Below are positions 14,035 through 18,907 of a stretch of DNA of 32,000 nt, one piece after another. Source of the stretch: Promethearchaeia archaeon (GTDB lineage Archaea; Asgardarchaeota; Lokiarchaeia; Sigyniarchaeales; SOKP01); assembly GCA_046497275.1 (NCBI GenBank), contig JAWOFX010000002.1:1-32000 (forward strand), read 5' to 3'. The position numbers and the translations under genes were made by a program. Position 1 is the stretch's first letter. The number at the start of each line of letters is the position of its first letter. Under the pieces are notes generated by a model, which made no database searches, was not told the DNA's origin, and worked only from the letters and a program-made list of their open reading frames with translations.

Positions 14035-15048
14035 TCAATCTTTGTATTTTTCTGTAAGAAGTCGTATAGCATCAGCCATATCATGTAAAGCTTTTTTTTT
14101 CTGAGTAGGATTTAATTCCATAAATTCGTTTTCAAAACCAGATTTTATCTCATTTGGAGATGCTAAGCTGAGATATTTATCTACTATAAGTTTAGTAATA
14201 TAATCATCATAATCTTTCAAAACTTTCTGAAGCTTATTATTCTCCCTTATTTCATCCCATAATTCCAATGTCTCTAAAGATCGAATGCCAATATCAAATC
14301 GAAACCAACTTATCGGAAACAATCTTTCTCGTTCGATACCTGATTCTATAATTGTGATACAATCTTGATCAATGTAAAATTCGGGAATTTCATCTTCTTT
14401 AAAAACAATTCTATCATTCATCATAAATAGATTTGCTGATTTATTTGATGAGACTACCAGACCTGTGGCAAAACCTTTAGCAAATCGCAATTTATCTGCG
14501 ATATCTTCTATTGTGGTTCCTGGTATTTTTAATTTATTTTTGTTACGCCCTTGAATTGTTATATTGATATAATCTCTTTTTTCTCCACTTTTAACTAATT
14601 TTGGAAATAAATTTTGATCTCTACTTTTTCTATGAGCATCCATTAAAGTATTTAATAATTCTCTATCAAGTTCTAATCCAGGTATAACAGTATTCTGATT
14701 CATAAACGCATCCACTTCAAAATCCCCAATACCATAAAATAATTTTTTTTCAGCAATGATCTGTCGAAGACTGTTAACTATTGAGGTTACGAGAGCATCA
14801 GGATCATCTTGTATTGATTGATATTCTTTTGTTGTAAAGGTATCGATTTGATCTTCTAAGCCCTCGATATTCTTATAGAATTCGGCCCAACTCATTTCAG
14901 TATAGATGGTTCCAATATTATAGAGATTGTGGTCTTTATCTAAACAAAATATATTTTTGGAACCTCCTAATTCAACTCCTGATTTTGAACCAGAAGCTAA
15001 AAAAGCAGATGGAGGATTGTAAAACTTTAGATAAAGACTGGAAATCAT
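14035..15048 (-). CDS. Conserved hypothetical protein, tandem paralog A
   Basis: Full-length similarity to 15141-16142 (FYNPP, GTIYTEMSWAEFYK, DFEVDAF, ISWFRxDxG). Confidence 0.8.
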   Translation of the reverse strand: MISSLYLKFYNPPSAFLASGSKSGVELGGSKNIFCLDKDHNLYNIGTIYTEMSWAEFYKNIEGLEDQIDTFTTKEYQSIQDDPDALVTSIVNSLRQIIAEKKLFYGIGDFEVDAFMNQNTVIPGLELDRELLNTLMDAHRKSRDQNLFPKLVKSGEKRDYINITIQGRNKNKLKIPGTTIEDIADKLRFAKGFATGLVVSSNKSANLFMMNDRIVFKEDEIPEFYIDQDCITIIESGIERERLFPISWFRFDIGIRSLETLELWDEIRENNKLQKVLKDYDDYITKLIVDKYLSLASPNEIKSGFENEFMELNPTQKKKALHDMADAIRLLTEKYKD

Positions 15049-15140
15049 ACTAATAAGTGAGTATAATTTAAATTTCTTTAATAAAAGTAGAATTGCTTAA
15101 CTATTTAAAATTACTTATCAATATTACTTTAAGAGTAGAT

Positions 15141-16142
15141 TTATTTTTTCTTCACATCTTCATGCAAAATTTTTATTGCAATTTGCAAATCTTTCAGCAC
15201 TTGTTTTCTCTCTTGAGGTGTCATCTGGAAAAAATCATCTTGGATATTGAATCCCAGTCCGCTGCTGGAAGCTAATTTTTCGTATTTTTTAAATATCATT
15301 TCTAAAAGATAATGATCATATTTAGCAATAGCTATTTGCAGTTTATCCATTTCCTTTATTTTATCCCATAAATTGAGAGTTTCTAGCGCATCTATTCCTA
15401 AATCAATACGGAACCAGCTTATAGGCGTAAGAATTTCATTTTCAATTCCATCCTCAATTAAACGAATATTTTCTTTATCTAAATATAATTTCCGAACTTT
15501 CTCTTCTTTAAACTTGATATTATCATTCATTATATAGAAATTAGCTAATATTTGAGTTGTACAAACAATTCCAGTAGCAAAACCGCTCACAGCCCTCAAC
15601 TGATTCGCTAATTCTTCCAAGTCAGATCCTTGAAATATTAATTTATCTCTTTTTTCTCCATAGAATTTTATTTGTATTTTTGGTTTATTCCCAGAATCTC
15701 TTAAGATTTTAGGAAATAATATCTTATCTCTTGTCGTTCTGTGTGCTTTCATTAATTTATTTATTACACTTGGAGGAATTTTAAGACCAGGAATAATGGT
15801 ATTTTCATTTAAAAATGCATCTACTTCAAAATCTAATATACCGTAAAACAATCTATCATTTTTAATAATCTTATTAATGCAATGAGAAATTGAATTTACA
15901 AGAGCTTCAGGATCATCACTGATAGATTCATATTCCTTTTGAGTAAAGCTATCGATTATATCCTCCAAACCTTCATCTTTATAAAATTCAGCCCAAGACA
16001 TTTCTGTATATATAGTTCCTTCAGAATAGAGATTTCGATCTTCATCTATACTTACAATTAGTTTAGAACCACCTATTTCTAAGCCTTCCTTTGACCCAGA
16101 TGCTAAAAGTGCTCGTGGGGGATTATAAAAATCTAACAGCAA
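15141..16142 (-). CDS. Conserved hypothetical protein, tandem paralog B
   Basis: Full-length similarity to 14035-15048. Confidence 0.8.
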   Translation of the reverse strand: MLLDFYNPPRALLASGSKEGLEIGGSKLIVSIDEDRNLYSEGTIYTEMSWAEFYKDEGLEDIIDSFTQKEYESISDDPEALVNSISHCINKIIKNDRLFYGILDFEVDAFLNENTIIPGLKIPPSVINKLMKAHRTTRDKILFPKILRDSGNKPKIQIKFYGEKRDKLIFQGSDLEELANQLRAVSGFATGIVCTTQILANFYIMNDNIKFKEEKVRKLYLDKENIRLIEDGIENEILTPISWFRIDLGIDALETLNLWDKIKEMDKLQIAIAKYDHYLLEMIFKKYEKLASSSGLGFNIQDDFFQMTPQERKQVLKDLQIAIKILHEDVKKK

Positions 16143-16239
16143 TGAATTAACCTTAAATTCATAATTGAAATTAAATATTTAGAATATTGAATATCCTTTA
16201 AGATCATTTTAGAAAACAAATTTATATAATTAATTAAAC

Positions 16240-16400
16240 GATGCATTTTTAAGAGTGCACATCTCTGCAACCAGCAACACGTTCGTGAATGCGGTATTAG
16301 GTAGTACTACTACACATAGGCAACACGAGTCATAGCTAAAAACCTTTTTGGACTCATTTGATACCTTTGTGGTTTAATCTTGCTTTTGTTTAACCTTTCT
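16240..16400 (-). ncRNA. Putative omega-RNA scaffold 3' region / element right end; 5' boundary unknown
   Basis: Position at the tnpB 3' end plus several hairpins (GCAttCACG-AA-CGTGtTGC; AGAG-N7-CTCT; GTTGCA...TGCATC). Inferred from the usual TnpB locus layout. Confidence 0.5.
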
Positions 16401-18838
16401 TTTCTTTTTAACTCTTTTGTGGGAATTCCATTTGAAGGGCAAAATCTAATCGGCGGGGTGGTGATAAATTTGGTAACTTTTTGCCTTGCTTGATTGGGTA
16501 GGCTTCGGCGAGGATCGGAAATCAAGCGTAGGTTGTAGGCGATGGCTTTATGGGAAAAGAGCTCTGGATGTTTTTTTCTGCCGATATTAGCAGCACCGTT
16601 GATATCTCCGTGAATGATTTTTCCGTTCCTTGTCCGAAACAGCCCATTATGTTTTACTTTATTTTGGGTGAATCTGCGTAATCCAGCATATTCATCATTT
16701 GGTTTTTTCCCAATGGATTCTTCATCAATAAATGAACATTTGCTGGTATACCATTCGGTTGTGTAATCCACTTTAATTCCAAAATAAATAGCTTCTTCCT
16801 GAATCCGTTCAAACATTCGGCTAAATGGAAGCGAAACGAATAAATCTCTGGTTATCTTCTTGAGTTTAACAGTATTGGTTTTCCATCCCGTGTTATAGCC
16901 AATTGTAATCGTCCCTACTCCATAGTATAGGCAATAATACATAAGCTTCTTGGCGATCTTGTTAATGGCATCCCGCTTCACTCTGTTATATTTGTCCCAT
17001 AACTCATCTATTTTCAATTTGACAGATGCTAAATATTTCCGTAAATTTTGAACTGACCACCCAGAAATTGTTTCCAAAATTCGTATTTTACGATTCCTTT
17101 TGTCCCGCAAATAGCGAGAATAATTACGCAAGAGAGAATTTTTCTCACGAGGGGCAATCTCCATCAAAATAATCTTTCTGAGCTTATTAAAAATCCCTTT
17201 ATAAACACTTTCTCCGTCGCTCTCAGCAAGTTTTCTGAAATTGTCCCAATTCGTATTTTTTGCAGTCCTAAAAAATGATCTGGAACGAAAACATCCAAGA
17301 GAAGAATTCGTATCCAATCGTGAAAGATCAGAAAACTTTTTAAAAACATACAAAATCATTTTTTTCAAGTTCTCGAACTCGTCGTGATAGGTGTGAATTC
17401 GAGAATCGATAATTGAGTCTAATGGTTGAATAAATTTATTTTTTTCATATCGCTCTAGCAAATCGGCAATTACATCAGCTTTCCGTTGCAGTGAGGGAAC
17501 TCTATGATTTATCCTATAATTCCATTTTTTTATTGCTGAACCGCTAAAAATAGGAAATTTCGCACCAAAATTTTTAAAGACAGTAAGAAAATTATTCACT
17601 CCGAAGTCAATGGAAATGGCTCTGTTAGGGTTTTGCTCGTAATTATTGAGATCAAGACCATATTCTCTGGCTCGTTGTGGTTTCGTTTTGTAATAATGAA
17701 TGTTAAATGAGTAATTTCTCCCGCAAGGTATGATCTCCACAAACCCACCGTTTTTGAACAATTGAGATAATACCCTTGCTCTGACTCGTATTCGGGGGAT
17801 TAAATGATCGTGTGAGGGTGGCACATACATATAACACGTACGTCTTTTATTATTGATGGCGTCTTTAAGGCTTTCTAGATTCTTCCTATGTTCGAGTCTC
17901 TGCTTTGTATAGATTAATTTCCATTGTCCCACTCGTTCTCCCTTTACTTTTTTGCCAATGTAGCGGGGTAGACCAGGTCGTGACGGCTTCTGACCGCGTC
18001 GATTTTCTGCGGTATGTTTCCAGTTTTTTAGACTTTCATAATATTTCTCTATTAACTTTAGGTGACTCAAAAAATTCTCACACACAGCTATAACTATCTG
18101 TTGGGCACATATAGTATATCCGATATCTTTGTAAGAATCCATAAATTTCATTATCGTTGGAACAGTACTACTTAAGGCTCGTAATCCATTTTCAAAAATT
18201 CCGTTCAAAATCTTTATAGCCGCCTTTTTTGTGTCAGTTGGATAACCGGATTCTCTTATGGTTTTATAAAATTTGTTCTCTATACTTTTACGATATAGGC
18301 TTTTCTTCTCAGGATCTTTCGTATTATGAAAAAAATAATATTGGCGCAATAAGTACAATGTATCATTCGCGAGTGCTCGAGAACGGTCAGAAAGGCGATT
18401 TAACTCTTTTAAATCAAATTTAGACCGAGAAATCCGGATTGACTCGGTGGAATAACGCCCTTTTTCGTCAATCATCGATTGCATTTCCTTAATGTGCTTT
18501 TGGTTTATTACAAAAGATCTCGAAGTAAGCTGCTTATTATCAATAGGTTTTGGGTTGATATGATCTTTATGGATTCCTACATTGGAATTCTTCGAAATAT
18601 CTTCGGCAGAATTCTTATTCTTCTCTTCGTTTAAATTTGGCAATAATAATTGGGAATTATTAGTTTTTTCTTGTTTAATTTTCTCAAATAAAGGATAAAA
18701 AGGGACCCCATAATTTCTCATCAGGATTTTATTTATCGCATCCAACCCTAACACAATATCGGTTTTAAAAGTCTGCGTCATATTGGTTTTAAGTAAGAAA
18801 TTGTCCTTATAGGCTTGATGATTTACATAAAATTCCAC
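16310..18838 (-). CDS. tnpB: Oversized TnpB-family RNA-guided endonuclease (842 aa from GTG 18838; 823 aa from ATG 18781)
   Basis: RuvC-I ISIDFGVNN (D411), TITIGYNTGWK (G647 at the canonical Glu position), TEWYTSKCS (E695), GLFRT...HGDINGAANI (D745); also PGLPRY and VEIIP motifs. Confidence 0.9.
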   Translation of the reverse strand: MEFYVNHQAYKDNFLLKTNMTQTFKTDIVLGLDAINKILMRNYGVPFYPLFEKIKQEKTNNSQLLLPNLNEEKNKNSAEDISKNSNVGIHKDHINPKPIDNKQLTSRSFVINQKHIKEMQSMIDEKGRYSTESIRISRSKFDLKELNRLSDRSRALANDTLYLLRQYYFFHNTKDPEKKSLYRKSIENKFYKTIRESGYPTDTKKAAIKILNGIFENGLRALSSTVPTIMKFMDSYKDIGYTICAQQIVIAVCENFLSHLKLIEKYYESLKNWKHTAENRRGQKPSRPGLPRYIGKKVKGERVGQWKLIYTKQRLEHRKNLESLKDAINNKRRTCYMYVPPSHDHLIPRIRVRARVLSQLFKNGGFVEIIPCGRNYSFNIHYYKTKPQRAREYGLDLNNYEQNPNRAISIDFGVNNFLTVFKNFGAKFPIFSGSAIKKWNYRINHRVPSLQRKADVIADLLERYEKNKFIQPLDSIIDSRIHTYHDEFENLKKMILYVFKKFSDLSRLDTNSSLGCFRSRSFFRTAKNTNWDNFRKLAESDGESVYKGIFNKLRKIILMEIAPREKNSLLRNYSRYLRDKRNRKIRILETISGWSVQNLRKYLASVKLKIDELWDKYNRVKRDAINKIAKKLMYYCLYYGVGTITIGYNTGWKTNTVKLKKITRDLFVSLPFSRMFERIQEEAIYFGIKVDYTTEWYTSKCSFIDEESIGKKPNDEYAGLRRFTQNKVKHNGLFRTRNGKIIHGDINGAANIGRKKHPELFSHKAIAYNLRLISDPRRSLPNQARQKVTKFITTPPIRFCPSNGIPTKELKRKERLNKSKIKPQRYQMSPKRFLAMTRVAYV

Positions 18839-18907
18839 ATCAGAAATAAACTCACCTTGCTTTGAGATGTTTAAGATTTTGTATCTCGATTATCTTTGAG
18901 GGAAAAA

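Follow-up and report, generated by a model that had tools for sequence, protein, structure and literature searches.

The fixed right end of a large TnpB element in a Lokiarchaeote most likely folds into a compact pseudoknot handle for a TnpB guide

The closest described counterparts of the locus considered here are the IS607-family TnpB elements (ISXfa1, CboIStron, and ISFba1) and ISDra2, whose omega/reRNA scaffold overlaps the 3′ end of tnpB, stops at the element end, and takes the flank as its guide. In both groups a pseudoknot employs bases just ahead of the guide, and the last two bases of the scaffold are also the last two of the motif. The guide-flanking pseudoknot is necessary for IS607 TnpB activity and is long-range in ISXfa1 (10.1101/2023.08.09.552727). 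The common last two bases of scaffold end and TAM are an IS607 pattern, and in CboIStron, where TCGG stands against TGGG, the difference falls at the third-last base (10.1101/2023.11.20.567912). Related TnpBs cut 16–22 nt from the motif. Other TnpBs have a glycine where the canonical RuvC-II glutamate would stand, with an alternative glutamate farther downstream (TnpB2; PMC10530073), a signature that likewise marks the RIIr-5 clade (PMC10691335). On the CRISPR side, the Un1Cas12f1 (Cas14a) guide contains a repeat that begins GTTGCAGA and ends ATGCAAC (10.1101/2022.10.20.513037), and arrays are thought to form by duplicating omega-RNA segments (PMC10691335). Our literature search for Asgard TnpB omega-RNAs, target duplication, or aborted homing found nothing direct.

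The window analyzed here is a stretch of 32,000 nt to which all coordinates refer; every feature of the element lies on its minus strand (Table 1). The assembly of the genome to which it belongs (G000) is 98.9% complete and has 30% GC. A first-pass annotation had proposed that a 32-mer at 16271-16240 closes the omega-RNA scaffold of a TnpB element at its right end, with a guide drawn from the flank, and also that this unit is a Cas12f-repeat-like, one-repeat proto-CRISPR. The former proposal is supported by the copies and empty alleles described below. In this Asgard archaeon (a Lokiarchaeote), the 32-mer marks the constant right terminus of a mobile element with many copies, and this right end very probably serves, as RNA, as the 3′ handle of the element's omega-RNA; sequence comparison shows the boundary, motif, guide origin, pseudoknot, and intact catalytic triad.

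Table 1. Features of the element and its junctions in the window
Feature	Position	Strand	Evidence
Inserted element, 5′-truncated copy (retropepsin remnant, tnpB, omega-RNA scaffold/right end)	16241..18872	-	Four empty alleles; blastn boundaries among genomic copies
tnpB ORF, 842 aa	16310..18838	-	Pfam OrfB_IS605 and TNB; TIGR01766 above cut-off, NCBIfam guided_TnpB below
Retropepsin-like protease, 3′ half of domain, in frame with tnpB	18665..18872	-	86% DNA identity to 1758-aa ORF on C111
Long irregular hairpin, last 20 codons of tnpB	16313..16371	-	z -3.2; RNAalifold on 25 copies
Tetraloop hairpin	16270..16295; core CAC 16287-16285, loop 16284-16281, GTG 16280-16278	-	89% of cells paired
H-type pseudoknot, putative scaffold 3′ handle	16241..16266	-	Paired cells 96%/98% (36 sequences); compensatory changes in distant homologues
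Pseudoknot stem 1	AGAG 16266-16263 / CTCT 16255-16252	-	96% paired
Pseudoknot stem 2	GTGCA 16260-16256 / TGCAT 16245-16241	-	98% paired
Pseudoknot A-rich loop	16251-16246	-	
Predicted 20-nt guide (host flank)	16221..16240	-	Conservation ends after 16241; empty allele is GACAT + flank
Left junction, AAA microhomology	18870..18885	-	~57 bp of target including motif deleted versus empty alleles

The tnpB gene is present in this genome in nine long copies (mostly 70–82% protein identity) and several 3′ remnants. An alignment of right ends from the same genome holds 11 ends, all of which stop at one base and continue into unrelated flanks. When two relatives and several metagenomes are included, the close copies number 37, and their last six bases, ATGC(A/T)T, are invariant but for two copies that end in TT instead of AT. 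The position that follows is free (A17/T13/C4/G3). Because the last six bases are fixed and the next is not, we placed the boundary at 16241 and assigned C16240 to the flank. The scaffold end had earlier been placed near 16240; conservation among homologous ends drops directly after 16241, so that the final C of the proposed 32-mer does not belong to the element and the guide starts one base earlier than had been suggested. The 32-mer had also been called single, which holds within the window; in the genome, our search returned eight matches with up to eight mismatches. The rise in AT content that had been remarked upon past this point is real (57% over 16241-16330, 85% over 16200-16240), and is what intergenic DNA ordinarily looks like in a genome with 30% GC. 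Lokiarchaeota and Promethearchaeota are the named sources of close homologues. A pattern search across the family returned, outside TnpB loci, mostly chance coding matches, and a promoter and terminator scan gave matches at chance level.

Two gene arrangements next to copies of the element may be recorded here. Directly downstream of the insertion, the window contains two tandem paralogous ORFs of 333 and 337 aa (14035-16142), which have no Pfam match and are conserved across Promethearchaeota. Another copy (C118; L017:2547-2554, G000) sits in the last codons of a convergent gene, whose product changes from 301 to 298 aa and whose stop codon is provided by the element end.

The site occupied in the window is empty in four independent assemblies (L057, L058, L089, and L090), in which the interval from a kinase gene to the 333-aa gene is 185 bp. 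These alleles read GACAT and then the flank, and, as four empty alleles of the same site, they confirm the right boundary of the window element. With empty alleles of 12 other sites and one paired left half, they yielded 14 insertion motifs (10 ATAT, two ACAT, and two GTAT), all of which end in AT and 12 of which fit AYAT. The core dinucleotide AT is therefore common to 14/14 targets and 35/37 element ends, and AYAT, lying 5′ of the insertion site, is a candidate TAM. As in the IS607-family and ISDra2 RNAs, the last two bases of the scaffold are those of the motif; the window element end, GCAT, departs from AYAT at the fourth-last base, as against the third-last in CboIStron. Motif, element, scaffold, and a flank taken as guide thus follow one another as is usual for TnpB. 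Compared with the four empty alleles, the guide of the window copy has a 3-nt insertion in its seed, so this copy may not cut its own empty alleles. Elsewhere in the genome we found no match to the window guide flanked by the motif or TAM. At the C92 site every orthologue was filled, and no empty allele was found.

A few other sites differ from their empty alleles at some distance from the insertion. At L007, L008, L011, and L020:3700-3725 (C115b), indels or duplications lie 17–25 nt past the right end, near the expected TnpB cut position. A site in the genome of the window that is filled in L009 (G000:C169:21828-21971) lacks the 20-nt guide match and has a 44-nt stretch that recurs unchanged upstream of the C108 element, possibly a repair scar.

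As RNA, the 32-mer most probably adopts a compact pseudoknot, which would hold the guide of TnpB. Among 36 aligned sequences, A-to-G changes in the pseudoknot stems are preserved as G-U pairs, and RNAalifold predicts stem 2 unprompted. In relatives, stem 1 takes the forms AGAG/CUCU, AAGG/CCUU, ACGG/CCGU, and AGGA/UCCU, and stem 2 the forms GUGCA/UGCAU, GUACCA/UGGUAU, and GUCCU/AGGAU. Distant TnpB loci (~28–33% identity or less) keep the same topology with other letters; such loci are few and were anchored by hand, and it is on them that the covariation of stem 2 rests, this stem being almost invariant among close copies. Four of 16 hand-picked ends misfit a strict pseudoknot template at the boundary, and an equal fold at a fixed end is possible in ~1% of random genomic windows; the aligned sequences are related by descent, and figures from shuffles are not probabilities. 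The upstream hairpin is capped by a tetraloop, for the most part GNRA among close copies and C-UUCG-G within the distant lineage, which points to RNA. The long hairpin at 16371-16313 is probably an upstream scaffold domain; it lies in coding DNA and shows little double-sided covariation, which coding constraint confounds. Like the IS607-family and ISDra2 pseudoknots, the one in the window employs bases just ahead of the predicted guide, but it is local and contained within 26 nt, unlike the long-range pairing of ISXfa1 (−3 with −130).

Folding of single sequences was unremarkable: the post-stop region folded no better than shuffles (nested models cannot score a pseudoknot), the isolated 32-mer gave z +0.48 against shuffles, and an Rfam search returned no relevant family. 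All of the letters reported by the first-pass annotation were located, namely the palindrome GTAGTACTAC at 16310-16301, the hairpin at 16292-16274, CGTGTTGC at both 16327-16320 and 16281-16274, and AGAG/CTCT inside the 32-mer, which is pseudoknot stem 1. The other structural readings fared less well on the alignment. The "near-complementary ends" of the 32-mer are paired in just 55% of cells across the 36 sequences, below shuffled controls, and the CACG-AA-CGTG register would need a 2-nt loop, whereas homologues back CAC-tetraloop-GTG; the terminal stem and the 2-nt-loop hairpin were therefore ruled out. The palindrome is broken in many copies, and the duplication of CGTGTTGC is not conserved among them. 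Homologous loci do nevertheless share a conserved structure with compensatory changes, in the form of the pseudoknot.

The TnpB core of the 842-aa ORF begins at about residue 109–117 and bears a large helical insertion after RuvC-I. RuvC residues D411, alternative E695, and D745 are invariant in 14 homologues, while the canonical RuvC-II glutamate is replaced by G647. From these residues, we conclude that the protein has a rearranged RuvC-II site of the TnpB2/RIIr-5 type with its catalytic residues intact. The spacing of G647 and E695 fits TnpB2 (PMC10530073) and the RIIr-5 signature (PMC10691335), in which, as in TvTnpB, the alternative glutamate lies ~45–48 residues downstream of the glycine. 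Unlike those proteins (~400 aa), the TnpBs of this family comprise ~730–780 aa, and in some full-length copies a long ORF and a retropepsin domain precede TnpB within one fused frame. A structure model of the window TnpB was of low confidence (pLDDT 61, pTM 0.35), and the Foldseek matches to it are scattered over Cas12f, other Cas12s, TnpB, and Fanzor at 9–14% identity.

The window ORF opens with ~58 residues that correspond to the 3′ half of a retropepsin. Full fusions of long ORF, protease, and TnpB occur at four sites of one metagenome (L006-L009), and a distant lineage (P0178; L196) encodes an 1806-aa fusion with the same RNA end; because full copies have this arrangement, we regard the window copy as 5′-truncated. 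The long N-terminal ORF was present in 1/154 genomes, and its low-confidence model matched PIN-like and winged-helix folds weakly (Z below 8). As a possible mobilizer it was set aside, given this distribution and the lack of any PHROG or Atlas lead. On C111 (L013:1256-6529, G000) the same front part carries a helix-turn-helix/HNH-like tail that replaces TnpB. Many copies have, upstream of tnpB, a divergent cysteine-containing frame of ~100 codons and an A-rich motif, sometimes duplicated (L015, L016, L022, L023, L004, and L093), and in C115b and L011 the A-rich motif is joined directly to 3′ parts of the element.

Could the 32-mer instead be a CRISPR repeat of the Cas12f type, or a seed from which such a repeat might arise, beside a protein on its way to becoming a Cas12? 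The premise of this proposal, that some Cas12f repeats start GTTGCA and end ATGCAAC, is correct for Un1Cas12f1; the first eight bases of the 32-mer, and its AATGCA, match the ends of that repeat, a pseudoknot strand lies beside the guide in both, and the protein is of Cas12 size. The origin of arrays in duplicated omega-RNA segments would also suit this idea, as would a distant relative (G007, L028), in which a 37-nt spacer separates two 55-nt units, and a degenerate second end in G099. However, the GTTGCA start occurs in 2/37 copies and is thus a private variant, and the TGCA on the 3′ side forms a strand of the pseudoknot, for which relatives have GGTA or GGA. The unit bounds a mobile element, empty alleles of which are known, and its self-contained pseudoknot makes a tracrRNA unnecessary. 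We found no array, array-like repeat, spacer, tracrRNA, or Cas1 in the assembly, and a second unit within 600 nt downstream was absent at 42/43 ends of the clade. The proto-CRISPR reading is hence largely refuted for the window locus, and we hold it to be highly improbable. The two relatives deserve description in their own right. At L028:3551-3697 (G007:C2), the two units are 48/55 identical and stand 37 nt apart right after a distant 832-aa TnpB; each has a tetraloop hairpin and a likely pseudoknot, and together they resemble an omega-RNA array of two units, which comes nearer to a proto-CRISPR than the window locus does. In L031/L114 (G099:C57), the tnpB tail and right end are followed, ~145 nt farther downstream, by a second and degenerate copy of both.

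The conserved end might also be a DNA signal for a transposase only, such as a single-strand hairpin or a binding site, and not a functional RNA. IS200/IS605 elements have DNA hairpins at their right ends, and DNA and RNA constraints overlap at the end considered here, which lends this explanation some weight. Against it stand the G-U-compatible changes, the GNRA and UUCG tetraloops, and the pseudoknot with its A-rich loop, which are signatures of RNA, as well as the retention of the topology with different letters in distant TnpB loci; we therefore think it very unlikely. What remains is a conserved omega-RNA end of a known kind, and not a CRISPR repeat; its pseudoknot is compact, its TnpB2 is very large, and its left junctions are ragged. 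Like IS1341-type solo-tnpB elements and standalone omega-RNAs, the element has no transposase inside, and two short derivatives (C115b and C185) retain the RNA end alone; unlike IS1341-type elements, it has no constant left boundary that we could find.

Whilst right junctions are exact, left junctions are ragged. Left and right halves were matched up through common flanks or through synteny rather than along uninterrupted sequence, and in none of ~10 resolvable left junctions was the motif followed by a constant left end. Five (L011, C116/C118, C18/C128, L093, and L169/L081) retain the motif and the first 4–8 bases of the right flank, the last of them additionally repeating its own left flank, and the motif is lost in the window (~57 bp), L004 (3 bp), and L005 (7 bp). 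Even in G043, where right ends are near-identical, 5′ lengths and upstream passengers differ. Insertion of IS605 and IS607 elements produces no target duplication, so the 4–8 bp duplications at five junctions count against insertion of that type. Compared with the IS607 family, the element also has a core of AT rather than GG and no linked TnpA. Nevertheless, the shared AT dinucleotide and a related ~420-aa TnpB that adjoins a serine recombinase in G097 suggest, at the level of sequence, an IS607 ancestry. Searches of G000 found no Y1 transposase and no serine transposase or resolvase, the latter being absent upstream of every copy as well (repeats may be unassembled); the Y1 genes of G002 and G043 stand ahead of a different TnpB family. 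Neither the sole tyrosine recombinase, which was not linked and lies ~7.5 kb away from the left half of C116, nor a LINE-like reverse transcriptase found in G000 only could be retained as a mobilizer. The latter is encoded on two short contigs without archaeal genes (L193 on C10 and L194 on C81), whose ORFs of ~1025 aa are of the eukaryotic non-LTR retrotransposon type (AP-endonuclease-like plus reverse transcriptase); such contigs occur in 1/135 genomes and are probably contamination.

Two accounts of these junctions were weighed. According to the one toward which we lean, tentatively and at a little short of even chances, an IS607-type recombinase that acts at the shared AT but is missing from the assembly makes new sites, and aborted homing repair accounts for the ragged left ends, which are its scars. 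It is favored by the distance at which related TnpBs cut from the motif, since scars with a long guide match would be cut again and those with a short one would stay. Alternatively, the element may insert by one end through a mechanism of its own, be it an exact strand transfer of the right end or target-primed copying at AYAT, after which host repair finishes the left side. The lack, among the resolvable junctions, of any with both motif and constant left end would be explained in this way, and so would the five that keep the motif and 4–8 right-flank bases, the others that delete the motif, and the variable 5′ lengths and passengers seen even within G043. No linked candidate enzyme is at hand, however: the long N-terminal ORF, with its weak matches, and the LINE-like contigs are each restricted as described above, and identical scars are expected wherever repair of a TnpB cut, made 16–22 nt away from the motif, is aborted. 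One-ended insertion thus seems to us possible, though unlikely. A broader proposal, that large Asgard TnpB elements spread without a two-ended transposase of the conventional sort, by exact right joining after AYAT and left repair that captures variable upstream DNA, and that their pseudoknot handle can be duplicated into arrays as in G007, is a good deal more speculative, and we regard it as doubtful.

If the right end is indeed an omega-RNA handle, known TnpBs suggest how expression, binding, cleavage, and homing may proceed. A transcript would run through tnpB and past 16241, and its coding-region hairpin, tetraloop hairpin, and 26-nt H-type pseudoknot would be bound by TnpB. Trimming would leave the scaffold and a guide made of the next ~16–20 flank bases. 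TnpB would cut the element-free allele, where AYAT is followed by a match to the guide, and GCAT, the element's own end, would escape self-cutting. Repair from the filled allele would then restore the element (homing).

To assay a Cas12-sized Asgard TnpB2, one needs to know where its scaffold stops and its guide begins, which motif to try, and what fold to test; these are now fixed, with AYAT as the candidate motif and the pseudoknot as the fold. The junctions, exact on the right and ragged on the left, may be a natural record of aborted TnpB homing or the sign of a new way of moving. Finally, the combination of a self-contained 26-nt handle with an enlarged protein may parallel the shift from RNA to protein in Cas12 evolution.
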